Shown one piece after another: positions 7,852-28,139 of a stretch of 64,000 nucleotides of DNA. The notes below the pieces were generated by a model that saw only the letters and a program-made list of their open reading frames with translations, did not search any database and was not told where the DNA came from. Origin of the DNA: Gemmatimonadales bacterium (GTDB lineage Bacteria > Gemmatimonadota > Gemmatimonadetes > Gemmatimonadales > GWC2-71-9); NCBI GenBank assembly GCA_050733075.1, contig JBOHSD010000002.1, positions 174,649 to 238,648 on the forward strand. The letters run 5' to 3'. Every line of letters starts with the position of its first letter. Position 1 is the stretch's first letter. A program made the translations under genes and the position numbers.

Positions 7852-7876
7852 CTGACGGAGGGCGGAATATATCAGG

Positions 7877-9706: not shown

Positions 9707-9768
9707 TCCTCGACCTCCAACAGGACGGCCCTCACGAGCCAGGAACAGCCGCGCAGGCGCGGTACACA

Positions 9769-9843: not shown

Positions 9844-9912
9844 GGGATCGGCGCCCCGACTACGGTTTTTAGCGATATTGCAGGGACCGTGCCGTGATGA
9901 CCGACACTCTAG

Positions 9913-10104: not shown

Positions 10105-10119
10105 AGACCATGGACGCTA

Positions 10120-11912: not shown

Positions 11913-12377
11913 CTACGCGGCCCCGAGGTTGTCCAGCGCCAGCCGCTCGGTAGATGAGAGCAGCTTGCGGGCGTTGAGGATGATGATGGTTCGCCCCGGA
12001 CGGGTGATGATACCCGAGATGTAAGCCGCAGCCAGGCCGCTGACCATGGGTCCGGGTGCCGCGATGGTCGTGGTATCGATCCGCATCACCTCGCGGACCT
12101 CGTCCACCAGCACCGCCACCCGCTGCGCCTCGAGCTCCAGCACCATGACTCGGGTCTCCTCCCGGATGACCGCCTCGACCTCGAACCGCTTGCGGAGGTC
12201 GATGACCGGCACGGCGCCGTCGCCGTAAGGCATCACGCCCTCCAGAAAATGCGGTGCCTTCGGTAGCGGCGAGGGTGCCGCATAGCGCAGAATGCGCTCG
12301 ACCTGGAGGATGTCCAGCGCGAACTCCTGCCGGCCGACCCGGAAGGTCACGACCTGGATATCGTCGCCGGTGTTCAT
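11913..12377 (-). CDS. cheW: CheW coupling protein (copy 3)
   Basis: 154 aa. VVTFRVGRQEFALDILQVERIL ... PHFLEGVMPYGDGAVPVIDLRKRF is a typical CheW fold sequence. Confidence 0.88.
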   Translation of the reverse strand: MNTGDDIQVVTFRVGRQEFALDILQVERILRYAAPSPLPKAPHFLEGVMPYGDGAVPVIDLRKRFEVEAVIREETRVMVLELEAQRVAVLVDEVREVMRIDTTTIAAPGPMVSGLAAAYISGIITRPGRTIIILNARKLLSSTERLALDNLGAA

Positions 12378-12805
12378 GCCGATATGGCCTCCGAGAAGCG
12401 GGAGCTGAGCGCGGCCAGATCCAGAAGCGGGACCAGCCCGTCGGGGTGGCGGGCAACGCCGATGGCCCAGGGAAGGGTTGAGCCGGGAGGGACCGGCAGC
12501 GCGGGCTCCCGGATAAGCACTTCGGCGTCGTCTATCTCGAGACAGACGGGCCGCCCGCCCAGGATCACCACGACAGCGAGATCTCCCACCACCGGCGGAC
12601 AGGCGGCCGCGTCCAGCAGGGCACCGAGATGAACGACCGGGACGAGCCGCCCGTGCAGCGCCACCACTCCACGCACTGCCGGTTCCATCGCCGGCACCGG
12701 GTGTACCCGGCCTATTTGGCTGACCTCGACCACATGGGCCAGCTCCAGCCCCACCCGCCGGCTGCCGGTTCGAACCAGCAGAAATCCGCTCCCAGCGCGA
12801 CTCAT
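12374..12805 (-). CDS. cheW: CheW-like protein (copy 2, divergent)
   Basis: 143 aa. [21 protein letters not shown] ... [21 protein letters not shown] has the CheW pattern. 4-nt overlaps on both sides. Confidence 0.75.
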
Positions 12806-13899
12806 CGAGGACTCAGCCGGGCCAACTCGGCCGCTACTCGGCCAGCGATTTCACTAACGGGGAGCACATATCGGGCGCCTCCGGCCTGAAAGGCGGCGCC
12901 CGGCATTCCGTAGATGGTGGCGGTCTCGCGGTCCTGCGCGATGCCGATACCGCCCGCATCGTGGATCTGCCGCAAGCCCTCGGCGCCGTCCCTCCCGATG
13001 CCGGTCAAGACCACGCCGATGGCGCGGGCGCCGAAGTGGCGCGCGACGCTGCCGAACAACGGATCCGCGGCCGGACGCACTCCCCACATGGTAGGCTCCT
13101 GGTTGAGGGCCACCCGGGCTCCTTGCGGTCCCGGGACGACGCGCATGTGGAAGTCACCCGGGGCCACATACGCAGTATCGGCCAGGACCGGCATCTCGTC
13201 GCGCGCCTCCACCACTCGGAAACGGCCCTGAGAGGCCAACCGGTCGGCCAGGCTCTGGGTGAACTTGGGAGGCATGTGCTGTACGATGAGCACCGTCGCC
13301 TCGAGCCCCGTAGGCAGATTCGGCACGATCTCGGCGAGCGCGCGAGGACCTCCAGTCGAGGCAGCCATGGCAACGCAGAGCCGCGCCTGACCGGGGGACT
13401 CGATTGGAGCATCCGGAGTCTCCTCGCGCTGGCGCCGTGACGACACCGCTAAACGCTTGACATCAGCCGAGCGGGCGGTTCGGAGCACGCCCAAGAGCCG
13501 TTCGGTGAAGCGAGCGGTGGCCGCTGGACCCCTCTCCTCTTCCTTGGCGACGAGATCTACCGCGCCCAGCTCCAGGGCCCGGATTGCGGCAGCGGCTCCG
13601 GCGCCAACGTGGGCGCTCACCACCACGATCGGGCGGGGGGACTCGGCCATGATGTATCCGATCGCGCCCAGTCCATCGAGCTCCGGCATCTCGAGATCCA
13701 TCAGCACCACGTCGGGCGCGTGGGCCCGCACTTTCCGGAGAGCGTCCATCCCGTCGCGCGCTGTGGCCACCACCCTGAACTCGCCCGATCCATCCACCAC
13801 TTCGGTAAGGAGACGGCGGAAGAACGGGCTATCGTCCACCACCAGCACCCGGCCCGGGTCAGAGCTGCTGAACACCGTGCGCCACCGTAATGACCTCAA
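12802..13899 (-). CDS. cheB: chemotaxis response regulator protein-glutamate methylesterase CheB
   Basis: 365 aa. Receiver domain ([23 protein letters not shown]) plus methylesterase domain ([25 protein letters not shown]). Confidence 0.92.
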
Positions 13900-14347
13900 C
13901 CCGCCCGTCGGAGACGCGGAGGCGGACAGTACGTCCGTAATCGCCCCCCACCGCTTCCCCCACGAGGGGAACGCCGTTCGTGCTCAGCACCTGGCGTGCC
14001 GCCACCAGATTGCGCTCACCCATTTGAACCGTCCCGGGAGGCGCCAGGGCCGAGAACATGCTGGCCCCGCCCGCCAGCCGAGCCGTGATGCGCTCGACCT
14101 GCGCACCCTCGGCGACCATCAGCTCCACCAGACGCGGCACCGCAGACTGGGGGAATTTGGCGGGGTTGCCTCCCCTCCGGCTCAACGCCGGTGACGGGAG
14201 CAGGACGTGCGCCAGGCCGCCCACCCGAGCTTCCGCATCGTACAGCAGAATGGCCACGCAGCTCCCCAGACCGACCGTGACGAGCGTGTCATCGGCCCCG
14301 CCGGTGCGGAGGTCCGCCACTCGCACCAGGACGTCCCGGCCGCTCAC
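13859..14347 (-). CDS. cheD: chemoreceptor glutamine deamidase CheD
   Basis: [30 protein letters not shown] is the CheD catalytic-Cys region. I place the start at GTG 14347-14345, which overlaps the cheR TGA as GTGA. The longer ORF-track start (14527) lies inside cheR. Confidence 0.85.
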
Positions 14348-15165
14348 GCCGTCCGCCGGTAGACCCGCTCGCGCGGGTCCAACAGGGTGAGCCGCTCGCG
14401 GGCCGGCCCGAACAGCGACTCGACCTTTCCCAGGACCAGAATGCCACCCGGCGCAAGCGCGTCGGCAAAGGCGAGGAACACCCGCTCCTGGGCCGCACGC
14501 CCGAAGTAAATGACGACGTTGCGGCAAAGGATGAGCTGATAGTGCTGCCGGGGCGGCGGCGCGCTGCAGAGATCGAGCACCCGCGGGAAGACCCGGCGGC
14601 GGACCCGCTCTATGACCCTATACCCCGCGCCGTCTTGCTCGAAATACCGGCCGACCAGGTCGGCCGGGAGATCGGCCAGAGCCTCCCTACGGTAGCGACC
14701 GTCCTGCACCCGCTGGAGGCATTCACGGTCGATGTCCGTGGCGTCCACGGTCACCCGCTCCAAGCGGTCGCCCAGGCCCTGGCGGTCCAGGTAATCGGCG
14801 ATCAGCACTGTGAGAGTATAGGGCTCCTCTCCCGAGGAGCAGCCCGCGCTCCAGGCGCGCACCTCGCCGCCGCTCGGGTCGCAGACCTCGTGCAGCAGTT
14901 TGGCGCGGAGCAGGTCCCAGGTCTCGGCGTTGCGATAGAACCTGGTGACGTTGATCGTGATGGCATCTTTGAGCAGCTCGTACTCGGCCGGACTGCGGTC
15001 CAGCAGGGCCTGGTAGTCGGGGTAGGTATGCACGCCGCACGCGCGCATCCTGACCGCTATGCGGCGGCGCAGACACTTGTCCTTGTAGGCATCGAGGCTG
15101 AGCCCGGCCTCTCGCGAGATCTTTCGCGTGAGGTCTGCAAACGCTGCTTCATCCGCGGAGCTCAC
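14344..15165 (-). CDS. cheR: chemotaxis protein methyltransferase CheR
   Basis: 273 aa. NVTRFYRNAETWD and RAWSAGCSSGEEPYTL are SAM-binding CheR signatures. Confidence 0.92.
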   Translation of the reverse strand: MSSADEAAFADLTRKISREAGLSLDAYKDKCLRRRIAVRMRACGVHTYPDYQALLDRSPAEYELLKDAITINVTRFYRNAETWDLLRAKLLHEVCDPSGGEVRAWSAGCSSGEEPYTLTVLIADYLDRQGLGDRLERVTVDATDIDRECLQRVQDGRYRREALADLPADLVGRYFEQDGAGYRVIERVRRRVFPRVLDLCSAPPPRQHYQLILCRNVVIYFGRAAQERVFLAFADALAPGGILVLGKVESLFGPARERLTLLDPRERVYRRTA

Positions 15166-16778
15166 TGGGCCAGGTCCAGCATCTCGAGATTGGCCCGGGC
15201 CAGCTGATGGCCCGGATTGAGCGAGGTGGCCTGGGCCCAGCTTTCCCGGGCTCGCGTGTGATCCCTCTTCTTGTAGGCGATGTTGCCCAGCTTGAAATAC
15301 AGATCGTCGCCCAGCTCCGGGTTGAGCTTGGCCGCTCGCTCGTAGGCTTCCGCCGCCTCTTCGTAACGCCCGTTCCGGTAGAGGATGTCCGCCAGGTTTT
15401 TGGAGACCTGGGGCAAGGTGGGGTCCTCGGACAGTGCGGTGCGAAGCATGGCCTCGGCGGCCTCGATATCGCCGGCCAACTCCAGCAGCACCGCCAGGTT
15501 GTTCTGCAACACCGCGTTGTTGGGAAAGGCGGCCACTCCCTCCCGGGCTGACTTCAGCGCCCCTTCGGCATCGTCCAATCCCGCGCTGGCCAGGCTGGCG
15601 GCCCAGTACCAGAGTGCAGGCCTGGGCTTGCCGTTGAGCAGCTCGCAGGCGCGGGTCAGACGCGCCAGCGCCACCTTGTGATCGCCCCGCTTCAAGGCAA
15701 CGATGCTCCAGCCCAACATGATGCGGGCGTCGTCGCGCGCCCGTCCGGCAGCGTCGCCGTACGCGGCTTCGGCCTCATCCAGCCGGCCAAGCTGCTCCAG
15801 AGCAAACCCGAGATTGTGCAGCGCCGCCGGCTTGGGGACGCCCGAATCCGACGCCTGGCGCAGCGCCCCGGCAGCCTCGTCCCACCGCGCCTGCCGGATA
15901 GCGATGAGTCCCAGAAACAGCGGCGCGCTGCTGTCGGAGGGCCGCAGATCCGTCACCCGGCGGAACTCGCGCAGCGCTTCCTCCAGCATCCCCGCCTTGT
16001 AAAAGGCTATCCCCAGGTTGCGGTGTTCTTCCACCCGGCTGTCGTTGGCCTTGGGTGCGGCGGCAGTGGACGTGCCCACCCGGTGGGCAAACCCTGCCGT
16101 GATGAGGCCGTACAACGCCTTGCCCACCTCGAACTCGACCAGCCCTGATTCCTCGATGAGCTGCTGGACGTCGCGGGTGCCGTCGATCAGCGGCAGGAGC
16201 CGCTGCTGCTCGGACGAAAGGGTGGGCGCCGACTGTCCGATGTGATCCTGGTCGACCGAGAAGATCAGATCGAACGAGGGGACCTTCTTCTCTATGAGAC
16301 TCCACTCGTCCACTCGCCGGGCCCCCTCGAGGAGAAGCGCCTCGGGACTGATCCGGACCAGGAAATCCTCGCTCTCCGGCCGGACGCCAGCCTCGAAGTT
16401 GAAGGTTCCCGAGGTCCAGGTGAACAGGTAGTAGACCGCCTCCTCGATCTGAATGCGCATGTACTCCTCGAGCTCGGCGCGGGTCAGCGTTCCCTTGCCG
16501 ACGAGGATCTCCCCCAGCTTGTGCTCCCGATCGTCTTCCTGGGCGGCGATTGCCTGTTGCAGCTGCTCCGCGGTGATGCGGCCCTTGCGGATCAACAGGT
16601 CGCCCAGCCGGTCACGGCGATTGACGATGGAGGCGAACGTGATGAGACCTTCATCCAGATAGATGGTCCCGAAGTTGTGCCGGTCGGCGAGAGCCAGGCA
16701 CCCGGTGCGGCGACCCAGAAAGAGGAGCTGGATCACGTCCGGGAGACTGGCCTCCTTGAGGCTGCCCTTGATGGCCAT
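15162..16778 (-). CDS. PATAN/DUF4388-domain protein with C-terminal TPR repeats
   Basis: Start taken at [30 protein letters not shown] (TGATG junction with the upstream stop at 16778). This N-terminus is the DUF4388/PATAN signature. The C-terminal half has about 8 TPR units. Confidence 0.8.
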   Translation of the reverse strand: MAIKGSLKEASLPDVIQLLFLGRRTGCLALADRHNFGTIYLDEGLITFASIVNRRDRLGDLLIRKGRITAEQLQQAIAAQEDDREHKLGEILVGKGTLTRAELEEYMRIQIEEAVYYLFTWTSGTFNFEAGVRPESEDFLVRISPEALLLEGARRVDEWSLIEKKVPSFDLIFSVDQDHIGQSAPTLSSEQQRLLPLIDGTRDVQQLIEESGLVEFEVGKALYGLITAGFAHRVGTSTAAAPKANDSRVEEHRNLGIAFYKAGMLEEALREFRRVTDLRPSDSSAPLFLGLIAIRQARWDEAAGALRQASDSGVPKPAALHNLGFALEQLGRLDEAEAAYGDAAGRARDDARIMLGWSIVALKRGDHKVALARLTRACELLNGKPRPALWYWAASLASAGLDDAEGALKSAREGVAAFPNNAVLQNNLAVLLELAGDIEAAEAMLRTALSEDPTLPQVSKNLADILYRNGRYEEAAEAYERAAKLNPELGDDLYFKLGNIAYKKRDHTRARESWAQATSLNPGHQLARANLEMLDLAQ

Positions 16779-18727
16779 CAGCGCCACTCCTCGACGATGC
16801 GGTCGCCAACATCGGGCCAGTCCCATACGATCTTTTCGCGGCTTCGGGCACCGCTGGCAGGAGCGACCACCCCACTCGAGCGGGTCGCGGTGGGACGCCG
16901 CGCCGGCCTGGGAGCGGGCGGCTCGAGCACTTCGCGCGCCAGAGCGCCAGAGGGAGTTGCGCCCCGGGACTCGGCCGCGTTCAGCACCCGCTGGAGCAAT
17001 CCATGCACCGCTCTGACCGAATCCGCCGGCCGGGAGCCGAGGTAATCCACCAGTTCCGGGTCCACGGCTCCCAGCTTCGTCTGAAGCAGCCGCTCGAGCA
17101 CGTGATGGCGGATCTCCCGATCCGGTGCCGGCAGGTCCACCACCAGCCCACCTTCCAGGCGGGTGCGGAGCCGGGCCTCGACTCCCTTGAGCTCCGAGAG
17201 CGGCACCGCCGAGCTGAAGGCCATCTGGCGGCCGGACTCCATCAGGTGGTTGAACAGAACGAATAGCTCGTCCTGGGTGCGTTCCTTATCGGTTACCAGG
17301 TGCACATCATCGAGCAAGAAGGCGGAGGCTGACCGGTACCTGGCCCGCCAGACTCCCACCGCGTCCCGACCTATTGCCTCGATGAGCTCGTTGGTGAACT
17401 CGTGGGCACTGAGACATGCCACCGGGCCCTTGCCGGACGAGGCGAGGGCGTTGCCGACCGCATGCAGAAGATGGGTCTTGCCCACGCCGCTCGCCCCCAC
17501 GATCACGAGGGGGTTGTAGCGGCCGGCCGGCTCAGCCAGCACGGTGCGCGCGGCCTGAAGGGCCATCCGGTTTCCAGCAGCCTCGACAAGGTCCTCCAGT
17601 TTCCAGAGCGGCGAGGGGGGCGGCGGCGGGTGGGCACCCTCCCGCGCGCGCCGGGTCAGGGCCTCGGCGCCGGCGATGTCATCGGGATCTCGGAAGGCGG
17701 TGGAGCCAGCCAGGTCCGGAGCCAGCTCCGCGGCCTCGGCTTGCAGAGTCTGGAGCTGCTTGACGTCGGCCTCGAACCGCTGCAGCACCTGCTCGGGATC
17801 GGTTGCCATCTCCTGCTGGAGCAGCGCCTCGATGCGAGTGGTGCGATATCCTTCGCCCTCCCACCGCAGGATGGCGGCGGCGACTTTGGTGCGCCAGGAA
17901 TCCACCTGCTGGGCCACGGTGGCAGAGACCTCGGAGAGGAAATCGCTGAACTCGTCCGGGGTACCCTCGCGTCCGGTCGAGGCATGCGTCTCCGCCGCCT
18001 GCACCTTCTCATTGCCGCCCGCCAGCAGCCGAGCCTGGTCCGGTTGCAGCGGCGTATCGCTCACGGCCTGAAAGGCGACCAGCCGGTTGAGCGCACCCAG
18101 CAGCTCGCGCACGTTGTCGATTGCCAGCGAAGCCACCGCCTCGAGCACGCCCTTGCCGAAGCTCGCCCGCCGTTCCTCCGCCTTCCGCTGCAGGATGGCC
18201 ACCCGAGTCTCATAGTCCGGGGCCGCGACGTCGATCACGAGGCCGCCGGCAAAGCGGCGGATAAGCCGCTCGTCGAGCGCCTCGATATCGGCCGGAGGCC
18301 GGTCGCTGGTGAGCACGATCTGGCGGTTGGCGGTCTGAAGCGTGTCGGTGAGTCGAAGGAGCTCGGCTTGCATCTCCCGGCGGTGGGTGAGGAATTGCAC
18401 GTCGTCCACCAGGAGAAGATCCACATCGATGAATCGCCGGCGATACGCTTCCCCTTGCCCCGCGGCAATGGCGGCGTGGAACGACTCCACGAACTCATCC
18501 AGCGTGAGATACTCGACCGCCAGGCCGGAGTTGATCGCGCGGGCGGCGTGGCCGATTCCCATGAGCAAATGGGTCTTTCCCAGCCCCGGGCGGGCATAGA
18601 TGAACAGCGGGTTGTAGACCGTGCCGGGCGACTCCGCCACCGCCTTGGCCGCGGTGAACGCCAGCCGGTTCGCCGCGCCGACAACCAGGGTGTCGAAGCG
18701 GTAGAGCGGGTTCAGTGTGGCGGTCAT
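16778..18727 (-). CDS. tandem DnaA/Hda-like AAA+ ATPase (two domain-III modules, no DnaA domains I or IV)
   Basis: Module 1: [12 protein letters not shown] (Walker A), [10 protein letters not shown] (Walker B), [31 protein letters not shown] (box VII). Module 2: [53 protein letters not shown]. There is no RDHTTV-type DNA-binding signature. ATGA overlap with the mglA stop. Confidence 0.85.
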
Positions 18728-19326
18728 GCGGCCGGGCTCCCCAGGGCCAACTTCTTCAGGACCAGCTCGGACACACCTTTCAGGGTCTCGAACACTCCGG
18801 TCCCATGAAGAGCATCCGCCGAGAAGCTTTGGACCGCACGGAAGTTCAGCGCATCATCCATCTCGTCCTGAGTGAGGATCAGATCGCGAGGCAGGTCCTG
18901 TTTGTTGTACTGTAAGACCACCGGCAGCTGGCGAATGTCCACCCCCTGCCCCAGAAGATTGTCCTGCAGGTTCTGGAGGCTCTCCAGGTTGTCGTCGAAC
19001 CGCCGGGCCTGGCTGTCGGCAACGAAGACCACACCATCGGCACCCTGGAGCACCAGCTTGCGGGTAGCGTTGTAGTAGCTCTGACCGGGGACGGTGTAGA
19101 GCTGAAACCTGGTAGTGAAGCCTGAGATCGTTCCCAGCTCGAGGGGCAGAAAATCGAAGAAGAGGGTCCGGTCCGTCTGGGTAGCCAGCGACACCATGCG
19201 GCCCCGGCGAACCTCGGGCACGCGGCCGTAAACGTATTGCAAGTTCGTCGTCTTGCCGGACCGCCCCGGTCCGTAATAGACGATCTTGCAGGTGATCTCA
19301 CGCGCGGTGAAGTTGACGAGGGACAT
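18724..19326 (-). CDS. mglA: Ras-like polarity GTPase MglA
   Basis: 200 aa. [52 protein letters not shown]. Collinear with my recollection of Myxococcus MglA over its whole length. Confidence 0.93.
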
Positions 19327-19331
19327 TCCAG

Positions 19332-19793
19332 TTACCGTCCGAAAAGCTCTTTGAGGCTCGCATCGAGCTCGTGCTCGAAGTTCTCCGCCACCAGCGGCGG
19401 CGACGGCCGTTCCCGGGGCGCCGCGCCCACCAGCTCCTCCACCATCTGGTCAAAGAAGAGCTGCACGAGACCGACCGAGGTTTCCGGCCCGAAGACGACG
19501 AGACCGATCCACCGGCCGCGGGGAGTGCCGAAGGCCGACAGCATGCAGCTCTGCCGGTTGCCGCCGTGCACCAGGGCCCCAAACCGGGGTGCGCCCATGA
19601 TTCGGGCCAGCTCCTCGGTCGACGCTACGATGGCCGAGCCCAGCGCGGCCGCCGTCATCACCTCGAAGGAGCGGGCGAATCCGTGCTGGGCGACCACCTG
19701 ACCCGAAGTGGTCATCAGCAGGATCAACCGGGCTGAAGACTCGGTGAGGAAGGTCTCCAGCGGTCCCAGCACCCAGGGCTCGAGCGCGCGCAT
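19332..19793 (-). CDS. mglB: MglB-like Roadblock/LC7 protein (putative MglA GAP)
   Basis: 153 aa. Roadblock-type core ([18 protein letters not shown]) with an acidic or helical C-terminal tail. Lies immediately upstream of mglA (5-nt gap). Confidence 0.82.
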
Positions 19794-20140: not shown

Positions 20141-21003
20141 CCGTGCCGCCCCAGCCATTCGCGCGCCTCCTTTGCCCCGCGTTCGGCCATCAGGCCGAGC
20201 CGTGCCATTGGCAGCGAGGGATCGCCCACCGTGAGCAGGACCGTGTCGGAGGTGGGCGCAACCAGGAACAGGTTTCCTGCGGGCGACTCAACGGCGATCG
20301 CCTGCCAGGCACCCAGGCCCAACAAGCGACTCGTCCTCGAGGCCTCTTTCGAGACACCGGCGAGCTCGGCGGCCACCCGGTCGCCCACATCTTCCCGGCC
20401 GGGGCTGCTCAGCGTGCCGGTAAGCCGGAGTCCGTTGGCGTCAACCAGCATCGATGCCTGGTTCCCGCTCTCCAGGGTCGGAAACTCCGCGGTGGCGACG
20501 GCGCCACTTTCCAGGGGAGTGGCAGCCGGTAGCGTCGGAGCAGCCCCGGCCGTAGCGCTCACCGGTTCGTTTCGAGCCGGCGACCGGTCATGGCGGGCCT
20601 CGCGGCCCTCGGCTCTGACGCGCTCCAGGGCCTGAACGATCGACTGGTCGTCGGGGTCGATCTCGGCCGCGCGCTCCAAGTGCTCCAGTGCCGCCGCCAC
20701 ATCACCCGCGCGGAAATACAGGAAGGCAATTCCCTTGAGGGCTCCGAGGTGCATCGGGTCGAGGCGGAGAGCCTCGACCAGGGCGTCGAAGGATCCGGCC
20801 AGGTCGCCTTGATCGCTCAGGATTCGGCCGACCAGATCGTGGGCATCGGCGAGTCCGGGATACCTGCTCAGGCCTCCACGCGCCACCTTGTAGGCCGCAT
20901 CCAGCTGCCCGCGCCGGCGCAAAGCTTCCCCCAGCTCCAGAAAGGCGAGGCTGGAGGGCTCATCGGCCAGTCGGGCCGTCAGTGCGCGTATGGGGTCAGT
21001 CAC
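20137..21003 (-). CDS. TPR - Roadblock/LC7 fusion protein
   Basis: N-terminal TPR units (AAYKVARGGLSRYPG, SFDALVEALRLDP, AALEHLERAAEIDP), then a linker. The C-terminal part, ASMLVDANGLRLTG...AIAVESPAGNLFLVAPTSDTVLLTVGDPSLPMARL, resembles Roadblock. Confidence 0.65.
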   Translation of the reverse strand: MTDPIRALTARLADEPSSLAFLELGEALRRRGQLDAAYKVARGGLSRYPGLADAHDLVGRILSDQGDLAGSFDALVEALRLDPMHLGALKGIAFLYFRAGDVAAALEHLERAAEIDPDDQSIVQALERVRAEGREARHDRSPARNEPVSATAGAAPTLPAATPLESGAVATAEFPTLESGNQASMLVDANGLRLTGTLSSPGREDVGDRVAAELAGVSKEASRTSRLLGLGAWQAIAVESPAGNLFLVAPTSDTVLLTVGDPSLPMARLGLMAERGAKEAREWLGRHG

Positions 21004-22042
21004 GGTAACTCTCGAGCTCCTCGGCCAGGGTTTCCGCCGCCTCTCTCAGGCGCTCGACTTCCGGCGCCAGCGCCTCCTCGCCGGGCGTTCGCGTGCCCAG
21101 CCGAGCCCAGCTGCTCCAGGTTTCCGCGGCGCTGCGGAAGCGGCCCAGCGACGCCTGGCACAGGCCGAACAAGCGCCGCGCCTCCGGCATTAGCGGATCC
21201 GAACGCAACACCTCCTGGAGTACATTGGCCGCCTTCTGGTACTCCCCCGCGGCCAATGCCCGGCGGACCGGGGCAAGCGAGGTAGCCTGATCCGACGCGT
21301 GGTCACGCGGGGCCGCGGCGGGTCCGCCGTCCAGGACGACCACGCCGGCGGCGGACAGCGCATATACCGTCCGGGCGACGTCGAACTCCGAGCGCCCGAG
21401 GGCTGCGGCAAGCGCATGGAGGTCGCGCTGGCCGTCCACCGCAGCGAGCACCTCCCACTCGAACGGCACCAGGTCGAGCCTTCCGCCCGCCGCGCTGTCG
21501 GACGGTGGCAGTCGCGGGACCAGGCGCAGGTGGGGAACTTTGGCTTCGATCCGAGACCACTCGTCCATGCGGCGGGCGGCCTCCATGAGGAGCACCTCGG
21601 TGGGAATCCGAACCGGGGCCTGCACCATCGCCTCGCACGGGGCCCCCTCCTCGAAACGGAAGTACCCCTCCGACCAGTTCATCAGCTCGAAGATCGCCTC
21701 CTCGATCTGGGCCTTGAGTTGCCGGTCGAGCTCGCGCCGCGCGATGGCCCCGGTGGAGACCAGGATGTCTCCTAGGCGCCGGGAGTCTCCGGATTCCTGG
21801 AGGGCGAGCGCCTGCTCGAGCTGCTGCGCGGTGATCTTTCCGGAGCGAACCAGTCGGCCGCCGAGAGGTTGCGGGTCCCTTCCCAGCGCCGCAGCCACCA
21901 CCCCACCCCGTTCGAAGGACACCGTTCCGCCGGTCTGACGCAGCTCGGAGGTGATCCGCAGCACCCCGCTCTTCCGGCCGAGGTCGAGCAGCTGGAAGAC
22001 GTCCTGAATGTGCAGCTCCTTGAGAGGCCCCTCGAGCGCCAC
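20996..22042 (-). CDS. PATAN/DUF4388-domain protein with C-terminal TPR-like region
   Basis: MALEGPLKELHIQDVFQLLDLGRKSGVLRI ... GDILVSTGAIARRELDRQLKAQIEEAIFELMNWSEGYFRFEEG parallels the N-terminus of the 15162-16778 protein. Confidence 0.8.
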   Translation of the reverse strand: MALEGPLKELHIQDVFQLLDLGRKSGVLRITSELRQTGGTVSFERGGVVAAALGRDPQPLGGRLVRSGKITAQQLEQALALQESGDSRRLGDILVSTGAIARRELDRQLKAQIEEAIFELMNWSEGYFRFEEGAPCEAMVQAPVRIPTEVLLMEAARRMDEWSRIEAKVPHLRLVPRLPPSDSAAGGRLDLVPFEWEVLAAVDGQRDLHALAAALGRSEFDVARTVYALSAAGVVVLDGGPAAAPRDHASDQATSLAPVRRALAAGEYQKAANVLQEVLRSDPLMPEARRLFGLCQASLGRFRSAAETWSSWARLGTRTPGEEALAPEVERLREAAETLAEELESYRD

Positions 22043-22045
22043 GGC

Positions 22046-24778
22046 TCAGCCCGCCGCCGCAAAGATGTGTTGCAGATCGCGGGCGGAACGGGCCCGGCTT
22101 CGGGCTTCGGTGGCGAACGGCCCGTCCGGGTCGAGCTGGATGACACGCTCCCAGACCTGCACCGCCCGATCGAACTGCCGTTGCCGCGCGAAGCACGTGC
22201 CCTGGTGGTAGAGCGCAGCCGCGTGCTCGGGATCGAAACGCAGCACCCGGGAAAAGGCCTCGAGCGCCTGGGTGGTTCGTCCGTCTTCGAGCAGGGCCTG
22301 GCCCAGCGCCGTCAGCGCCTCCAGCTCGTAGGGATCGGCTTCCAGGATCCGTACCAGCACCGGGATCGCCGCCCGGGGAGCCTCGGTGCGGCGGATCAGA
22401 TCGGCGAGTGCGAGCGCGGCCGGGCCATAGGTCGGCAGCAGATCGAGCGCACGCTCATACGCCGAACGCGCGGCCGCCCAGTTGTGCCGCTCCTCCTCCA
22501 TCTCTCCGAGCTCACACCATACGCGAACCAGCGACGGATCGAGCTGAAGGGCGGCGTTGAAGGCGGCCAACGCGGCGGCCCGGTCGCCCAGGCGGACCGA
22601 GGCCTGGGCCTGGAGATGGAAGAGGTCGGGCCGCCCCGGCGCGAGTGACTGCGCCTCTCGAATGCAGTCGAGCGCACCGATGGCATCTCCCACAGCCAAC
22701 CGGACCCGCGCCCGGGCTAGGAGCACCTCGATGTCGCCCCGTACCCGGGAAGCGAGATCGTCCGCCAGCGAGACAGCGTCCTTGGCCCAACCAAGAGCGA
22801 GCAGGGCCCGAATCTCGCCCAGGGTAGCGTCGGGGTCGGTGGGTACCAGGGCTCGCGCTTCGCGGTAGCGCTCGAGCGCCTCCCCGTATAGCCCGCGCCT
22901 GGCGAAGATGTCGCCCTTAAGAACCACCGTCGCTCCCCGGGGCGCGCCCCTTGCCGCCGCCCGGGACAGCTCGGAGCCCGCGAGATCCAGCAGGCCTTTG
23001 GCGATGAGCTCGCGCGCGGAGTCGAGCGATTCGTCGGTCTGGTCTATGGCAGCCGCCGTCTGAGGTGGGGCGAGCTCCTCGAAAAGGCGATCGAGCGCGG
23101 GCGAATCGAAGCTGAACTCGCCGGCGAGCTCCTCCCCGCTGACCTCGGCCGTCAGCTCCGGCGCGATCGCGATGGTCGGATCTTCGTACTGCAGGTCTAT
23201 CGTCAACGCGAATTTCTGCGGCACGTACAAGGGCTCCAGCTCCAGGGCTCGCCGGGTTTCCCGCAACGCGGCATCGAAGTCGCCCAACTGGCTGAGCACG
23301 AAGCTCAGGTTGTAGTGGGCCGCCGCGAAGTCCGGCTCGGCATCCACCGCGCGCCCGAAAGCGTTGCGCGCGTCCTCGTAGCGTTTCAGCTCCATGAGAA
23401 CCAGGCCCACCCCGTTCCAGCCGACCGCACTGGACGGCTGCTCGGCGAGGGCGCGTTGATACTCTTCCAAAGCGCTCTTGTGCTGGCGGCGCTGGAGTAG
23501 AAGGAGGGCCAGATTGAGCCGGGCCGTGAACAGCGGCCGGGAGCCTCCCAGCGCCTGGCGGAACGCGGCCACTGCTCCATCGCTGGATGGCTCGCTTGCC
23601 CGGATGACTCCCAGGTTGTTCCAGGCGAGCTGGTATGCAGAATCGGCGCCGACGGCTTTTTCGTAGGAGTCTAGCGCTTCGGCGCGCCTGCCCGCCTGGT
23701 GGAGGCATACGCCGCGCTCGTTCCAGAGCTTGGGCGAATCGGAGTCCTCAGCCACCAGAGCGTCGTATAGCTCGAGCGCAACCGTGAGATCCCGCCTCAG
23801 CAGGTGAACCTCGGCCATCGCCTGCAGGTTGAGGCGCCGGTCCTCGCCGGCGTCCAGCGCCTGCTGGTACTCGCGGAGCGACTCCTCGTGATAGCCCTTC
23901 TGACGGAGGGCCACGCCGAGGTTGTAGTGCGCCAGCGGGGCACCCGCGACCGGCTGCGGGGCAGCGGGGCAGCGGGGCAGCGGGGAGGTTGACTCATACC
24001 TGGGATGTGGCATGCCATTCCGTCCTGTTGCCCCGCTGCCCTGCTGCCCTGCTTGCGAGCGGTCCAGCGCCAGGTTGGCCTGAGCGCGCGCCAGCATCGG
24101 ATTGAGCCCTATGGCTCGCTTGGTCGCCGCCCGGGCTGCCTCATGCTGGCCCAGGTCGCCGTAGACGAAGGCCAGCAGATAGTGCGCTTCGGCGTAATCG
24201 GGGTTTCGGGCAATGGCTTCCTGCAGTGCGGCGAGCGCGGGCTCGTTGAGACCGCGGTTGTAGAGCACTTCACCGTACTGGAAGCGGGCGACCGGGTTGG
24301 CGGGATCCTGAGTGCAGGCCCGGCTCAGCCACTCGCTGGCTGCGTCGAGCCGCCCGCGAGCCTTGTGGGCGAGGCCCAGCTGAAGCATGGCCGGAACATC
24401 TTCAGGGTGGCTCGCGAGCAACGCCTCGAACTCGGCCACTGCCTCTTCGTGCCGGCCTATGGTAGCGTAGGCCCTGCCGAGCTCCCACCGGGCTTTGCGA
24501 TCGTTGGGACGGCGGCGGGCTTCCTGGACGAGATCGGCGATCCGCCGATCGTAGTGACCGCTGTCGCGGTACGCGATCTCCAGGTTGGTTTGCGCCACCT
24601 GCATCCTCGAGTCGAGCTCGAGCGCCCGGGCAAACTCGGCGATGGCCTCTTCTACCAGCCCTTTTTGATAGTAGAGAACGCCGAGGTTGTTGTGGGCTCC
24701 CGCGTCGGAAGGATCGATCCGGCGGGCAAACGAGCGGAGCACCGTGAGGTCGCGCTCCGACAGTGCAGGGGCCGGCAT
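22046..24778 (-). CDS. large TPR-repeat protein (910 aa) carrying an in-frame repeat element
   Basis: TPR units run through the whole ORF. There is a low-complexity linker (SQAGQQGSGATGRNGMPHPRYESTSPLPRCPAAPQPVAG) encoded by the 23954-24056 palindromic element. 3-nt gaps to cheC and to the PATAN gene. Confidence 0.75.
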   Translation of the reverse strand: MPAPALSERDLTVLRSFARRIDPSDAGAHNNLGVLYYQKGLVEEAIAEFARALELDSRMQVAQTNLEIAYRDSGHYDRRIADLVQEARRRPNDRKARWELGRAYATIGRHEEAVAEFEALLASHPEDVPAMLQLGLAHKARGRLDAASEWLSRACTQDPANPVARFQYGEVLYNRGLNEPALAALQEAIARNPDYAEAHYLLAFVYGDLGQHEAARAATKRAIGLNPMLARAQANLALDRSQAGQQGSGATGRNGMPHPRYESTSPLPRCPAAPQPVAGAPLAHYNLGVALRQKGYHEESLREYQQALDAGEDRRLNLQAMAEVHLLRRDLTVALELYDALVAEDSDSPKLWNERGVCLHQAGRRAEALDSYEKAVGADSAYQLAWNNLGVIRASEPSSDGAVAAFRQALGGSRPLFTARLNLALLLLQRRQHKSALEEYQRALAEQPSSAVGWNGVGLVLMELKRYEDARNAFGRAVDAEPDFAAAHYNLSFVLSQLGDFDAALRETRRALELEPLYVPQKFALTIDLQYEDPTIAIAPELTAEVSGEELAGEFSFDSPALDRLFEELAPPQTAAAIDQTDESLDSARELIAKGLLDLAGSELSRAAARGAPRGATVVLKGDIFARRGLYGEALERYREARALVPTDPDATLGEIRALLALGWAKDAVSLADDLASRVRGDIEVLLARARVRLAVGDAIGALDCIREAQSLAPGRPDLFHLQAQASVRLGDRAAALAAFNAALQLDPSLVRVWCELGEMEEERHNWAAARSAYERALDLLPTYGPAALALADLIRRTEAPRAAIPVLVRILEADPYELEALTALGQALLEDGRTTQALEAFSRVLRFDPEHAAALYHQGTCFARQRQFDRAVQVWERVIQLDPDGPFATEARSRARSARDLQHIFAAAG
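23954..24056. repeat. inverted tandem-octamer element inside the TPR ORF
   Basis: Left arm is CTGCGGGGCAGCGGGGCAGCGGGGCAGCGGGGA. A less GC-rich core of about 40 nt follows. Right arm is TGTTGCCCCGCTGCCCTGCTGCCCTGCTTGC, an imperfect reverse complement. Confidence 0.8.
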
Positions 24779-24781
24779 GGA

Positions 24782-25402
24782 TCAGCTTAGGCGGATAGCG
24801 TCGAAAATAGACCGCAGCGAGGCCACGTCGGGCAGCAGCAGGAAATGGCCTCCCAGCGATTCGGCGGCGCCTTCCACCCGGAACGAAGTTTCGACACAGA
24901 AGGCATGGTCCCGGTCATGACCGAAGTTCAGGTGAGCCGACATGAGGATGGCCCCACTCAGGTCGATCACCAGACTGGGCACCGAAGGTACCAGCATCAT
25001 CCCCATGAAGTCGCTGAGCGCGTTCAGATACGCGCTGGCCAGGATGTTGCCGGCCTCCTTCAGGCTGGACTGCTCCATCGGGTCGAAGGATTGGGTGGTA
25101 CCGGGCTCGCGCCGCAGCAGGAAGTCGCAGAGCGTTCGCGCGGCAGGCTCCGGGAACAGCAGCAGGGCCCGGCCGGTGAGATCGCCCATCATGTGCATGA
25201 GGATCGCGGCGGTGACGCTATCGGGGGGGCCGACCATGTCGCGGGCGTCTTCCAGCGGACGCACGTTGACCCGGGGCACAGTGATCATGATGGTGCGATT
25301 GGTCATCTGGGACAGGGCGGTGGCAGCGTGCCCGGCGCCGATGTTGGCGACCTCGCGCATGGCGTCGAGCTGCGACTCCTTCAGGTCACGCACGTCTTCC
25401 AT
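24782..25402 (-). CDS. cheC: CheY-P phosphatase CheC
   Basis: 206 aa. LDAMREVANIGAGHAATALSQM and SLKEAGNILASAYLNALS are the duplicated CheC motifs. Confidence 0.88.
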   Translation of the reverse strand: MEDVRDLKESQLDAMREVANIGAGHAATALSQMTNRTIMITVPRVNVRPLEDARDMVGPPDSVTAAILMHMMGDLTGRALLLFPEPAARTLCDFLLRREPGTTQSFDPMEQSSLKEAGNILASAYLNALSDFMGMMLVPSVPSLVIDLSGAILMSAHLNFGHDRDHAFCVETSFRVEGAAESLGGHFLLLPDVASLRSIFDAIRLS

Positions 25403-25411
25403 GCTTTCCTC

Positions 25412-27298
25412 CTACAGGAGCGCCGCGGCGTCCAGGATGAGCGCCGGCGCACCATCCGCGAGAATCGTCGCCCCCCCGACGAAGGGCGGCAGTCCCTCAG
25501 GGGCATCGAACGGCTCGACTACGATGTCCTGCTGGCCCAGCAGGGCGTCTACCACCAGAGCGGCGCGGCGTTCTCCGACTTCCAGGATGACTGTCGGCCG
25601 CTTGGCCGGCGTGCCGTTGGATCGGGCCGAGACCAGGTGACGGAGGTGGACCGTAGGAATCACCTGCTCCCGGACGACCAGGGCCTCGCGGTCCCGCAAC
25701 GAGGTGACCGCCCGCGCGTCGAACTCGACCGTCTCGGCGACGTAGGCCAGCGGCACCGCGTAACGCTCGCCCCCGGCCTCGGCCAGCAACGCCCGCACGA
25801 TCGCCAGGGTGAGGGGCACCCGGATCAAAAAGGTGCTCCCGCGGCCCATCTCGCTGCGCACTTCCAGGGTTCCGCCCAGCGCCCGGACCCGCGTCATGGC
25901 CACATCCACTCCCACGCCCCGCCCCGATACGCCGCTGACCGCCTTGGCGGTGCTGAACCCAGGCCGGGCCAGGACCCGGACCAGCAGGTCGTCGGTCAGG
26001 GCCTCCACGTCCTGGGGTGCCGCGCCCTCCCGGCGAGCCTGGTCGAGAATTCGCTCCCGGTCGATCCCCCGACCGTCGTCCGTCACCCGAAGCGCGACAG
26101 TGTTGCGTTCCCGGGTAGCGGAGAGGAGGATCCGGGCTTCTGCCGGCTTACCCGCTGCCATGCGCTGTTCCGGCGACTCGATCCCGTGATCGGCAGCGTT
26201 GCGGATCAGGTGCAGCAGCGGGTCGCCGATCTCGTCCAGAATCGAGCGGTCGAGCTCGATCTCCTCGCCTTCCATGTCGAACCGGATCCGCTTTCCCAGA
26301 TCACGCGCCAGGTCGCGCACCAGCCGGGGGAACCGCTCGAACACCTCACCCACCGGAGTCATCCGGGCGGCCAGGACCTCGCCTTGCATTGCCGACACCA
26401 GCCGGGAGATGCGCTCGCTCAGCTCGGTAAGGGTGGGATCCGCCGCCTCGCTCGAGAGCACGACGAGGCGGTTCTTGGCGACCACGAGCTCGCCGACCTG
26501 CTTCATCAGCGCGTCCAGCCGGCGGAGAGCCACCCGGATCTGCCGGCCCTGCGACGCGCCGTTGGCCTCCGCCACGGCTTCCCCAAACTGCACCGCTTCG
26601 ACGTCTCCGACGGCAGCGAGCGTCGCTGCTATCTCCGCGTCCGGACGCCGGGTGTGAAGCCGGAAGCTGAACCGGCCATCGAACTCGTCTCGTTCCAGTT
26701 GAGCCGCGGGTGGCCGTAGACCGCTCACGGCACCCAGGCCTTCGGCGCGCCGGAGCACCAGCGCAGCTCTAGCTCCTCGCATCACGGCACCGGGCCGGAT
26801 GACTACCTGAACCGGCCGCAAGCGAGCGGCGTCGGAGGCTCGCCGATTCCTGGCACCCTCGGGATCAGCCGCCGCGGCGGACGGCCCGGGCCGGCTCGGC
26901 ACCGCGGCGGCATCGGCTTCCTTACCGGAGGCAGCGGAGTCGAGCTCGGCGATCAGCTCGTGGTCGGGCTCCTCGTCGGTTCCTGCCGCAGCCGCCTCGA
27001 CCGATTCACCCAGCCGGTCCACCGCACGGAACAGGAGCTGGAAGACGGTGGGCGTGGCCGGCGCTCGGCCATGCCGGAGCCCGTCCAGCAGGTTCTCGGT
27101 GGCGTGCGCGAGCTGGGCGACGGCGCCATACCCCATGGTCGCCGCCATCCCCTTGATGGTATGGATAGCGCGGAAAAGGCGGCCCACCGGCTCGAGCGAC
27201 GCCGGCTCCCGCTCCCATTCCAGCAGCGACCCGTTACACGCACTGAGATGCTCACGACTCTCGGCAAGAAAGAGAGCGGCGTACTGGGACAGGTCCAT
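25412..27298 (-). CDS. cheA: chemotaxis histidine kinase CheA
   Basis: 628 aa. Hpt domain (LFRAIHTIKGMAATMG), dimerisation region, HATPase (HLIRNAADHGIE, DDGRGID, GRGVGVDV) and a C-terminal CheW-like domain. Confidence 0.95.
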   Translation of the reverse strand: MDLSQYAALFLAESREHLSACNGSLLEWEREPASLEPVGRLFRAIHTIKGMAATMGYGAVAQLAHATENLLDGLRHGRAPATPTVFQLLFRAVDRLGESVEAAAAGTDEEPDHELIAELDSAASGKEADAAAVPSRPGPSAAAADPEGARNRRASDAARLRPVQVVIRPGAVMRGARAALVLRRAEGLGAVSGLRPPAAQLERDEFDGRFSFRLHTRRPDAEIAATLAAVGDVEAVQFGEAVAEANGASQGRQIRVALRRLDALMKQVGELVVAKNRLVVLSSEAADPTLTELSERISRLVSAMQGEVLAARMTPVGEVFERFPRLVRDLARDLGKRIRFDMEGEEIELDRSILDEIGDPLLHLIRNAADHGIESPEQRMAAGKPAEARILLSATRERNTVALRVTDDGRGIDRERILDQARREGAAPQDVEALTDDLLVRVLARPGFSTAKAVSGVSGRGVGVDVAMTRVRALGGTLEVRSEMGRGSTFLIRVPLTLAIVRALLAEAGGERYAVPLAYVAETVEFDARAVTSLRDREALVVREQVIPTVHLRHLVSARSNGTPAKRPTVILEVGERRAALVVDALLGQQDIVVEPFDAPEGLPPFVGGATILADGAPALILDAAALL

Positions 27299-27301
27299 GA
27301 A

Positions 27302-27664
27302 TCAGGCCAGGACGCGCTGAACCGCCTCGAGCACCCGGGATGGTTGGAACGGCTTGACCACGAAGTCCTTGGCTCCTGCCTGGATCGCCTCGACCACCAG
27401 AGCCTGCTGTCCCATCGCGCTGCACATCAGAATCCTGGCTTCGGGATCGTCCTTGCAGATCTCGCGCACCGCCTCGATCCCGCCCATGTCCGGCATGACG
27501 ATGTCCATGGTGACGAGGTCAGGCTTGAGCACCCGGTACTTCTCGACCGCCTGCAAACCCGACTCCGCCTCACCCACGATCTCGAACCCGGCCTGGCTCA
27601 GGATGTCGCTGATCATCGTGCGCATGAAGATGGCGTCGTCGCACACCAGCACAGTTTGGTTCAC
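27302..27664 (-). CDS. cheY: single-domain response regulator CheY
   Basis: 120 aa. VLVCDDAIFMR, LVTMDIVMPDMGG and KDFVVKPF. 3-nt gap to cheA. Confidence 0.92.
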   Translation of the reverse strand: MNQTVLVCDDAIFMRTMISDILSQAGFEIVGEAESGLQAVEKYRVLKPDLVTMDIVMPDMGGIEAVREICKDDPEARILMCSAMGQQALVVEAIQAGAKDFVVKPFQPSRVLEAVQRVLA

Positions 27665-27701
27665 GGACTTCCTCCGGGCATGTTAGCGGGGCGGCGACCA
27701 T

Positions 27702-28139
27702 CTAGGCTCCGATGATCGGCGCGAACAGTGCGTCCACATCGAGCAGAATGAAATGCCGATCCGCTGCGAGGCCGACCGCCTTCACCAGCCGGGGGTCTAC
27801 CCCGGGAAGGTCCCGGCGCTCGACTACCGAGCCACCGGGTAGCTCCAGGAAGTCGAGGACCTGTCCGACTCCGAGACCGTAGCTCCGGCCCTTGACCTCG
27901 AGCACCACGATGGCGCCCTCATCGGCCTGGCGCCGCGGCTGCTGAAGCAGCAGGTGGCCATCGAGTACGGTCAGCAGGCTGCCGCGAACGTTGACCAGAC
28001 CTTCCACCGCCTCGGACACACCCGGAATCCGGGTGGCCGTCAGGCGAGGGAGGATCTCACGCACGATCCCTGCCGGGGCCGCGCAAACGACCTCACCGAT
28101 CCGAAAGATGACGGCGTGAAGCGCGGGAGGGTTAGCCAT
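27702..28139 (-). CDS. cheW: CheW coupling protein (copy 1)
   Basis: 145 aa. AVIFRIGEVVCAAPAGIVREIL ... VEGLVNVRGSLLTVLDG. Its start overlaps the rluD stop by 8 nt. Confidence 0.85.
   Translation of the reverse strand: MANPPALHAVIFRIGEVVCAAPAGIVREILPRLTATRIPGVSEAVEGLVNVRGSLLTVLDGHLLLQQPRRQADEGAIVVLEVKGRSYGLGVGQVLDFLELPGGSVVERRDLPGVDPRLVKAVGLAADRHFILLDVDALFAPIIGA

Follow-up and report, generated by a model that had tools for sequence, protein, structure and literature searches.

A 64,000-nucleotide (nt) stretch of the genome of a Gemmatimonadales bacterium (GenBank assembly GCA_050733075.1, contig JBOHSD010000002.1, positions 174,649 to 238,648 of the forward strand; hereafter the window) contains a chemotaxis-type (che) gene cluster that encloses genes for the polarity proteins MglA and MglB. 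The G+C content of the window is ~66%, and its minus strand carries nearly all genes from ~33.7 kb down to 0.5 kb. The cluster occupies positions 11913-28139 of the minus strand and reads CheW-CheY-CheA-CheC, followed by eight inner genes and then by CheR-CheD-CheB-CheW-CheW. The 17 consecutive minus-strand open reading frames (ORFs) from 28139 down to 11913, which formed the input of the Pfam scan, are as follows (positions are those of the window).

27702-28139, minus strand: cheW1 (Pfam CheW, E 3e-21), opens the che block; 8-nt overlap between its start and the rluD stop
27302-27664, minus strand: cheY, single-domain response regulator (Pfam Response_reg, E 2e-30)
25412-27298, minus strand: cheA with full P1-P5 architecture (Pfam Hpt, P2, H-kinase_dim, HATPase_c and CheW)
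24782-25402, minus strand: cheC, phosphatase of phosphorylated CheY (CheY-P) (Pfam CheC, E 5e-21)
22046-24778, minus strand: 910-residue all-TPR protein, here TPR910 (many TPR families, e.g. TPR_2, E 4e-80)
20996-22042, minus strand: 348-residue PATAN(DUF4388)-TPR protein (Pfam DUF4388, E 2e-32; NCBIfam NF053729, 46.1 bits)
20137-21003, minus strand: 288-residue TPR and Roadblock-like protein (Pfam TPR_2 in the N-terminal part, E 2e-13; Robl_LC7 at residues 181-259)
19793-20158, minus strand: 121-residue Roadblock/LC7 protein (Pfam Robl_LC7, E 1.4e-8; PDB 7f8m, a Robl_LC7 protein, E 3e-5)
19332-19793, minus strand: mglB, 153 residues, directly upstream of mglA (no Pfam match; NCBIfam and PDB MglB matches)
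18724-19326, minus strand: mglA, Ras-like polarity GTPase (PDB Myxococcus xanthus MglA, E 1.3e-73)
16778-18727, minus strand: 649-residue AAA+ ATPase with DnaA domain III in tandem (Pfam Bac_DnaA twice, E 5e-92)
15162-16826, minus strand: 554-residue PATAN-TPR protein, here PATAN554 (Pfam DUF4388, E 6e-35, and TPR; NF053729, 47.5 bits)
14344-15165, minus strand: cheR, methyltransferase (Pfam CheR, E 5e-44, and CheR_N, E 1e-11; aligned with Escherichia coli CheR)
13859-14527, minus strand: cheD, deamidase (Pfam CheD, E 6e-25; listed start TTG)
12802-13899, minus strand: cheB, methylesterase with a receiver (Pfam CheB_methylest, E 4e-62, and Response_reg)
12374-12805, minus strand: cheW2 (Pfam CheW, E 8e-17)
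11913-12377, minus strand: cheW3, atypical CheW (Pfam CheW, E 6e-33)

Pfam thus bears out the first-pass annotation of this DNA in placing CheR, CheB, CheD and three CheW proteins in the cluster. The annotation had also described the large non-enzymatic ORFs as TPR or PATAN proteins, which holds only in part: the inner block additionally encodes MglA, MglB, two Roadblock proteins and the 649-residue AAA+ ATPase.

The gene set was compared across related genomes with the tandem ATPase as query and one genome per species. The best 80 of 204 relatives were taken as loci (1,386,949 bases in all); they are phylogenetically close, are titled Gemmatimonadales, Gemmatimonadaceae or Gemmatimonadota metagenome-assembled genomes with one exception titled Solirubrobacterales, and encode ATPases 57-86% identical to that of the window. 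Gene order is identical throughout the 80 loci, and the complete set is present in all 37 that span rluD to mraW, the remaining loci being truncated at the end of the contig or of the locus. The flanks show the same conservation, with ileS-lspA-rluD upstream and genes for a TPR protein, a Peptidase_MA protein and a further TPR protein, followed by the dcw cluster, downstream.

Che proteins and the search for a receptor

Several features by which a canonical chemotaxis pathway is recognized are present: CheA has P1, P3, P4 and P5 and is accompanied by CheW, CheY has its phospho-acceptor residues, and CheB has both its catalytic triad and its receiver Asp. In the PDB, CheA matches E. coli CheA (E 2e-88) and the P3-P5 portion of Thermotoga maritima CheA (E 3e-85). 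It contains no receiver domain, and the only receivers of the cluster are the single-domain CheY and the N-terminus of CheB. CheY keeps D12, D13, D57 and K109, with S at position 87 and F at position 106, and is highly conserved (mean identity 92%, 58 sequences). CheC contains both [DS]x3Ex2Nx(20-24)P active-site motifs, CheB keeps D11 and D56 together with the S164/H190/D286 triad, and CheD has the conserved segments GLGSCV and GGLAHVLLP, the Cys and His of which we take to be its catalytic residues. Nothing in the sequences points to a change of function in the kinase or in the adaptation enzymes. The F1 class in the scheme of Wuichet and Zhulin is defined by class-specific CheA, CheW and CheR profiles, by CheC and CheD, and by 44H receptors. 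CheC and CheD are both present here, and the best NCBIfam matches of CheC (Thermotogales CheC, E 1e-49) and of CheA (haloarchaeal CheA) fall below the model cutoffs; membership in the F class and the heptad class of the receptors are a weak guess. One more single-domain response regulator, an orphan (52475-52879, minus strand; Response_reg, E 2e-25), lies ~24 kb from the che cluster and adjoins an invasin-like protein with Big_1.

The three CheW proteins differ at the site by which CheW contacts receptors, where a salt bridge between E38 and R62 (E. coli numbering) supports the binding surface. The residues of CheW1 aligned with E38 and R62 are invariant (55 of 55 orthologues), and the P5 domain of CheA in the window also keeps both. 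CheW2 retains the E38 equivalent in 52 of 57 orthologues; the position aligned with R62 is occupied by R in 34 and by H in 17. CheW3 has the strongest Pfam CheW score of the three; yet Arg takes the E38 position in all 62 orthologues, and the R62 position is taken by G, E or A, so that its site looks charge-altered or charge-swapped. The coupling partner of CheW3 may accordingly differ from that of CheW1 and CheW2.

Methyl-accepting chemotaxis proteins (MCPs) are the usual receptors of such a pathway, and the first-pass annotation had found neither their signalling hairpin nor HAMP sequences in or next to the cluster. The searches made here agree. Pfam returned no MCPsignal or HAMP match in the 17 cluster products or the three next upstream genes (E<=0.01), or in 28 further flanking products (E<=1e-4). 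When E. coli Tar and Tap were run with phmmer --max against the six-frame open stretches of at least 30 residues from the whole window, the best E value was 2. A 35-residue consensus of the MCP signalling hairpin, with up to 20 substitutions allowed, had no match in the window, whereas the control sequences Tar and Tap were recovered at 6 substitutions. Nor was an MCP gene found in a cluster ORF or just outside it: the ~10 kb past the left end of the window contain the dcw genes murD, ftsW, murG, murC, ftsQ, ftsA and ftsZ and no MCP, no MCP signalling domain was found in the 80 orthologous Gemmatimonadales loci, and none occurs in L083 to L088, which include the loci of three distant lineages described below.

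The lack of an MCP gene is common, as receptors are in most cases encoded at other sites of the genome. A receptor-less che operon by itself has known explanations and carries little weight alone; an MCP gene in or beside the operon is not a strict mark of the family, since many members use unlinked MCPs. Precedents are documented: the Geobacter alpha and beta che clusters lack mcp genes (PMC2577667), the Geobacter sulfurreducens CheW EsnB (GSU2220) and CheA EsnC (GSU2222) interact with the unlinked MCP EsnA (GSU1704), mutants in these genes sharing phenotypes (PMC5585712), and the M. xanthus Che8 cluster contains no MCP in a genome where 13 of 21 MCPs are orphans (PMC3945109). These clusters share with the present one cheA, cheW (often two copies), cheB and cheR, and they draw their receptors from elsewhere, the assignment resting on two-hybrid data and matching mutant phenotypes in Geobacter and on phylogeny in Myxococcus. 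They differ in belonging to the Deltaproteobacteria, and their descriptions, by which alone they were compared, mention no mglA, mglB, PATAN protein or tandem DnaA-type ATPase in the parts consulted. A Myxococcota origin and a kinship with the Geobacter beta ('Dpc') cluster were considered and dropped, as the locus is from Gemmatimonadales and the Geobacter and Che8 papers, in the same parts, mention none of the genes of the embedded module. Closer to home, the annotation of Gemmatimonas phototrophica places an MCP (RS00390) far from cheA (RS15835) (PMC9862903). The receptor genes of the present system likely lie elsewhere in the genome. Of the two interpretations offered by the first-pass annotation, this is the better supported, given the MCP-less precedents, the canonical CheW1 and CheA P5 and the Gemmatimonas annotation; the other, a TPR or PATAN protein as the methylation substrate, found no support.

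The latter idea was examined with the pattern [ASTG][ASTG]xx[EQ][EQ]xx[ASTG][ASTG], of which three of the four flanking residues sufficed, in all 20 cluster and flank proteins, and conservation was assessed over 50-79 orthologues. Nine matches were obtained. None of the TPR or PATAN proteins has a conserved site (50-79 orthologues each), and the one match in PATAN554 was rejected because it forms part of an MshEN-type motif. The sole well-conserved match is in the ATPase, where ATVAQQVD[SA]W (residues 269-278) falls within residues 259-291, which are predicted to form a 33-residue helix. All 79 sequences keep the second Gln of this segment; the first is R, H or D in 13 of these 79, all from Gemmatimonadales that retain the che genes, and distant relatives have G, S, A, E or T there. 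As a methylation site the segment is a weak candidate. Further, no CheR-tethering C-terminus of the xWxxF type was seen among the proteins inspected, the TPR and PATAN proteins included, and a related lineage keeps its TPR and PATAN proteins in a locus without CheR, CheB and CheD.

The embedded MglA/MglB, PATAN-TPR and ATPase block

The small GTPase is, by its motifs, a genuine MglA. It has the G1 motif GPGRSGKTT, the MglA-specific G3 motif TVPGQ, in which Thr replaces Asp (TxxGQ) as is typical of MglA-type GTPases, and NKQD; its match to M. xanthus MglA extends over the full length (residues 1-196), and its mean identity is 90% (75 sequences). The Pfam-less ORF of 153 residues matches the NCBIfam model of MglB (Thermus) over nearly its full length (E 6e-8, below the cutoff) and the PDB entries of M. 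xanthus and Thermus thermophilus MglB (E 1e-7 to 6e-6). On these matches it is MglB, the predicted GTPase-activating partner of MglA, and the two genes form an mglB-mglA pair. A Roadblock-fold MglB adjoining mglA is the arrangement that marks the MglA Group 1 module. This group is known in Gemmatimonadetes, and PATAN genes sometimes lie near mglA (PMC4316618); the supplementary table of that study lists GAU_1115 (MglB>MglA>) and GAU_1409 (PATAN>MglA>-PATAN>) and leaves che genes unmentioned. Two further Roadblock-type proteins precede MglB here. The 121-residue protein, in an MglC-like position, is an additional MglB paralogue, and the Robl_LC7 match of the 288-residue protein (E 1.4e-4) reaches 21.9 bits against a cutoff of 23.

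Both PATAN-TPR proteins score above the cutoff of 38 of NCBIfam NF053729 ('cyclic di-GMP-binding domain, MshE-related'). The alpha-clip insertion of each contains two tandem 24-residue motifs of the type RLGxxLLxxGxIxxxxLxxALxxQ, separated by a spacer of ~5 residues, at residues ~59-112 of the 348-residue protein and ~73-124 of PATAN554. These agree with what we take to be the MshEN consensus, RLGxx(L/V/I)(L/V/I)xxG(L/V/I)(L/V/I)xxxxLxxxLxxQ in tandem. Because their tandem motifs score above this cutoff, the two proteins are predicted receptors of cyclic di-GMP (c-di-GMP), and both probably bind it. The PATAN domain is known as the output domain of cyanobacterial PatA-type regulators, where it binds PilB1 and PilC (bioRxiv 10.1101/2021.06.11.447907). 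The TPR and PATAN proteins of the cluster look like output-side adaptors around MglA/MglB. The first-pass annotation had suggested a scaffold role for them, which survives in this changed form and not as a substitute for receptors. TPR910 is a candidate effector or scaffold of MglA and a candidate partner of the ATPase; in each of the distant lineages L083, L084 and L086 its orthologue is adjacent to the ATPase gene or one gene away.

The 649-residue ATPase consists of two AAA+ modules of the DnaA domain III type, each with intact Walker A and Walker B motifs and a DnaA-like, Arg-rich segment of the box VII type. Pfam finds no Bac_DnaA_C match in it, and domains I, II and IV are absent. The AlphaFold 2 model (mean predicted local distance difference test score 86) shows the two modules joined by a helical linker (residues 259-364) and, beyond them, a disordered tail (602-639) that leads into a short helix at the end; the disordered tail stands where DnaA has domain IV. 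The best solved match in Foldseek is domain III of Bacillus subtilis DnaA (43% identity, root-mean-square deviation 1.5 A). After ~35 disordered residues comes a conserved C-terminal peptide, SREKxVW[DE]WP..[DE]RxxE[ED]WR, which is kept down to ~34% identity (P0125-P0264). A tethered acidic peptide beside several TPR proteins suggests a docking tail, and the peptide looks like a tethered docking motif, perhaps for one of the TPR proteins encoded nearby.

In a search of 1.84 billion representative proteins, full-length relatives with two modules were found down to ~34% identity, and those with a named source come from Gemmatimonadota and from 'Ca. Cloacimonetes bacterium 4572_55'. One subfamily has a degenerate second Walker A motif (P0181, P0200, P0202 and P0264). 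Another relative, P0207 (1876 residues, from a metagenome of the Joint Genome Institute, JGI), joins MshEN, a DnaA-type AAA+ module, a charged coiled-coil repeat stretch of ~1200 residues and another AAA+ module; because MshEN is here fused to the ATPase, the ATPase family appears tied to MshEN/PATAN-type domains. Public sources (P0001-P0120) label the ATPase 'chromosomal replication initiator protein DnaA' or 'DnaA/Hda family protein', probably mistakenly, because the protein is without a DNA-binding domain and is encoded in a signalling operon. With DnaA and Hda it shares domain III in each half, the Walker A and B motifs and the Arg-rich box VII-type segment; it differs from them in its tandem AAA+ arrangement, the lack of a DNA-binding domain, the helical linker, the C-terminal WxWP peptide and the signalling context. 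Two copies of domain III, the missing Bac_DnaA_C match and a disordered tail in place of domain IV speak against a DnaA/Hda replication protein and make the names misleading.

Direction of signalling and rival explanations

Readable contexts outside the close relatives come from three lineages, L083, L084 and L086/L087. The ATPases of L086 and L087 are 36% identical to that of the window, and L086 occupies the same slot between ileS-lspA-rluD and mraW. It reads (3024-13563, plus strand) CheY-CheC-TPR-PATAN-TPR/Robl-Robl-MglB-MglA-ATPase-PATAN-TPR-Peptidase_MA, and CheW, CheA, CheR, CheD and CheB are absent from this locus; L087, a 7.8-kb contig, covers part of the module only. L083, of the 'Cloacimonetes 4572_55' lineage, lies in another genomic context and reads CheW-CheY-CheA-AAA_22-CheW(310 residues)-CheC-TPR-PATAN-ATPase; MglA/MglB, CheR, CheB and CheD are absent there. 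Between its cheA and cheC (3743-5493, plus strand) lie a 272-residue AAA_22 ATPase gene and the gene of the 310-residue CheW, which has a 150-residue N-terminal extension. L084 has the TPR-ATPase pair only.

CheY is the diffusible signal of chemotaxis pathways and CheC its phosphatase. Because the stable partners of the module are CheY and CheC, rather than CheA, CheW or the methylation enzymes, the module is most likely an output and a target of CheY-P. A role as a receptor substitute is hard to reconcile with L086, which keeps the module with CheY and CheC only. We therefore consider it probable that the cluster encodes a conventional MCP-dependent pathway with receptors elsewhere, and that the embedded MglA/MglB-PATAN-TPR-ATPase block is its output, so that the whole would resemble the action of Frz on MglA within one operon. 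In such a pathway, unlinked MCPs would control CheA through CheW. CheA would phosphorylate the single-domain CheY, and CheC would reset it, for which the domains and catalytic residues are in place. CheY-P might then act on the PATAN, TPR and Roadblock proteins and shift the balance between MglA-GTP and MglB, the outcome being a change in cell polarity or in how active a polar machine is, with type IV pili as the most plausible one; this step is modelled by analogy on the action of Frz on MglA/MglB in Myxococcus and on the binding of PATAN to PilB/PilC in cyanobacteria. CheR, CheB and CheD would adapt the MCPs. More speculatively, the PATAN proteins could integrate c-di-GMP, and the ATPase could remodel or assemble the complex while its acidic, Trp-rich C-terminal tail docks on a TPR protein.

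Several points weigh against this explanation. Synteny inside Gemmatimonadales argues only weakly for functional coupling, since the housekeeping genes on either side (rluD and mraW) are equally conserved. An unlinked cognate MCP is something we infer, and the sole direct pointer to it is the annotation in a cultured Gemmatimonas (PMC9862903). CheW3 departs from the canonical E38/R62 pair and may for this reason couple to something other than an MCP. Neither PATAN protein has a Response_reg domain by Pfam, so that they are not of the PATAN-receiver kind. Pfam scans show no type IV pilus, flagellar or other motor gene in the window, which makes the controlled machine a guess; the target of CheY-P and the machine, be it type IV pili, a flagellar pole or another, are conjectural, and any CheY-binding partner is putative.

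It is unlikely, but far from negligible, that two unrelated systems stand side by side here, a che operon (possibly flagellar) and an MglAB/PATAN polarity operon, frozen together by synteny and without a signalling link. The Gemmatimonadales synteny runs unchanged into housekeeping genes on both sides, so that co-linearity is uninformative, and such a view would also fit the TPR-ATPase pair without che genes in L084, the module without CheA in L086 and the flagellated state of cultured Gemmatimonas (PMC9862903). However, the che set is divided into two parts, one on either side of the module, with frames that overlap or nearly abut, and CheY and CheC stay beside the module where the rest of the che set is missing. 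In addition, the distant L083 locus has, in its different context, again a contiguous CheW-CheY-CheA-CheC-TPR-PATAN-ATPase set. It is quite unlikely that the cluster has two outputs, CheY-P driving a flagellar motor in an F1-like manner (compare Bacillus and Thermotoga) and the module positioning or regulating the array or a flagellar pole, not type IV pili. The combination of CheC, CheD and a P2-containing CheA does resemble the Bacillus/Thermotoga type, albeit with best NCBIfam matches below cutoff, cultured Gemmatimonas has a single polar flagellum (PMC9862903), and pilus genes are missing nearby. Flagellar genes, though, are missing from the window as well, the known roles of PATAN and MglA are in type IV pili and gliding polarity, and the class was assigned without class-specific models.

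A receptor-less array, in which the TPR, PATAN and ATPase proteins replace MCPs as an input scaffold coupled through CheW (e.g. one that senses c-di-GMP) and CheR, CheB and CheD modify one of them, is very unlikely. That three stand-alone CheW proteins occur although no examined locus has an MCP, that CheW3 is atypical at the E38/R62 positions and that the PATAN motifs of the c-di-GMP type could serve as sensors would all suit it; so would the ATVAQQVD[SA]W segment with its invariant second Gln on a predicted helix (79 sequences) and the precedent of a non-MCP protein, PhoP, reported to be methylated by CheR in Salmonella (PMC8546571). Yet the first Gln of that segment varies, both in 13 of the 79 Gemmatimonadales sequences, which retain the che genes, and in distant relatives, no TPR or PATAN motif is conserved and no tethering pentapeptide was found. 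CheW1 and CheA P5 look canonical, and L086, without CheA, CheW, CheR, CheB and CheD, puts the module downstream of CheY and not upstream of CheA. We hold it highly improbable that the system has no MCP partner at all, with CheW, and especially CheW3, coupling CheA to the TPR, PATAN and AAA+ proteins and CheD, CheR and CheB carrying out deamidation and methylation of a non-MCP protein, for which ATVAQQVD[SA]W would be the sole candidate site. If true, the array would sense c-di-GMP independently of receptors and would contain a methyl-accepting protein of a new class.

The preferred explanation, an MCP-dependent pathway with the polarity block as output, can be set beside known systems. In the Frz system of M. 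xanthus the kinase FrzE is a CheA-CheY fusion that works with FrzZ/FrzX, and RomR/RomX provide a link to MglA. The present cluster shares with Frz-MglA/MglB (PMC3441718; PMC4316618) a Che-type kinase and regulator together with MglA/MglB, extra Roadblock paralogues (compare MglC) and TPR proteins (compare SgmX). In Myxococcus, mglBA lies apart from the frz genes, and a cytoplasmic MCP, FrzCD, belongs to the frz cluster itself (PMC3945109); here, mglBA shares one operon with the genes of a stand-alone CheY, CheC, CheD, three CheW proteins, PATAN-TPR proteins and a tandem DnaA-type ATPase, and no MCP or RomR-like gene was seen in it. The cluster may thus be Frz-like in its working but is not a member of the Frz family, because it has no FrzCD-type MCP, CheA-CheY fusion or dual-receiver FrzZ. 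With the cyanobacterial Tax/Pix systems and their PatA-type regulators (bioRxiv 10.1101/2021.06.11.447907) it shares a Che-like pathway and a PATAN (DUF4388) output with an alpha-clip insertion; there PATAN is fused to a receiver, whereas here it is fused to TPR and the receiver is a separate CheY. MglA also works with TPR partners at the cell pole to control type IV pili in a Bdellovibrio hub of MglA, the TPR protein Bd2492, RomR and the c-di-GMP receptor CdgA (PMC3983030) and in M. xanthus, where MglA is reported to bind the TPR protein SgmX (PMC7519303). In these cases no linked che genes occur, no PATAN or AAA+ partner is described in the papers cited, and Bdellovibrio has no MglB.

In the open-access literature, the coverage of which is incomplete, no description was found of a che operon built around mglBA, PATAN-TPR proteins and a tandem DnaA-type ATPase. 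In Myxococcus the route from Frz to MglA/MglB had to be pieced together from unlinked genes. In Gemmatimonadota, another phylum and one abundant in soil, the kinase, regulator, phosphatase, adaptation enzymes, MglA/MglB and candidate connectors are packed as one unit. The candidate connectors, namely two PATAN-TPR proteins, one TPR protein, two Roadblock proteins and the tandem DnaA-type AAA+ ATPase, offer a short parts list for a link from Che proteins to a small GTPase. Further, a c-di-GMP input through the PATAN alpha-clips is suggested, and the ATPase points to a family of 'DnaA' look-alikes that are signalling-associated ATPases and not replication proteins.

Transcription unit and other genes of the window

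From the stop of rluD through the Peptidase_MA gene, no intergenic gap exceeds 37 nt, and there are several overlaps of 1-8 nt; the only wider spacers are those that separate ileS from lspA (381 nt) and that lie 3' of the Peptidase_MA gene (350 nt). By their spacing, the genes of this stretch look co-transcribed. Because the spacing stays tight beyond cheW3, the transcription unit is likely wider than 11913-28139 and includes two more genes.

11043-11912, minus strand: 289-residue TPR protein, here TPR289 (Pfam TPR families), 0 nt after the cheW3 stop
10120-11106, minus strand: protein of the Peptidase_MA superfamily (Pfam Peptidase_MA_2, E 7e-11), overlapping the TPR289 stop

The TPR289 gene adjoins the cluster in every locus that is long enough, and in L086, and is probably co-transcribed with it. 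The Peptidase_MA gene keeps its position after TPR289, L086 included, and is probably the last of the unit, as the 350-nt gap comes next. Simple scans for promoters and terminators, made at either end of the cluster, yielded one site at most (0 or 1), which does not exceed the expectation from shuffled sequence; since these scans were uninformative, the operon limits were drawn solely from gene spacing. The listed cheD ORF overlaps cheR by 184 nt, and conservation among orthologues starts only near residue 66, for which reason the true start of cheD is probably downstream, at ~14330-14350.

Elsewhere in the window, a 524-residue ORF (55888-57462, minus strand) has no Pfam match, and a 965-residue ORF (42829-45726, plus strand) has a weak match to DUF7363 only. 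A non-homologous end-joining LigD set is split into three adjacent genes (45693-49053, minus strand), which encode a 3'-phosphoesterase (LigD_N), an ATP-dependent ligase and a Prim-Pol.

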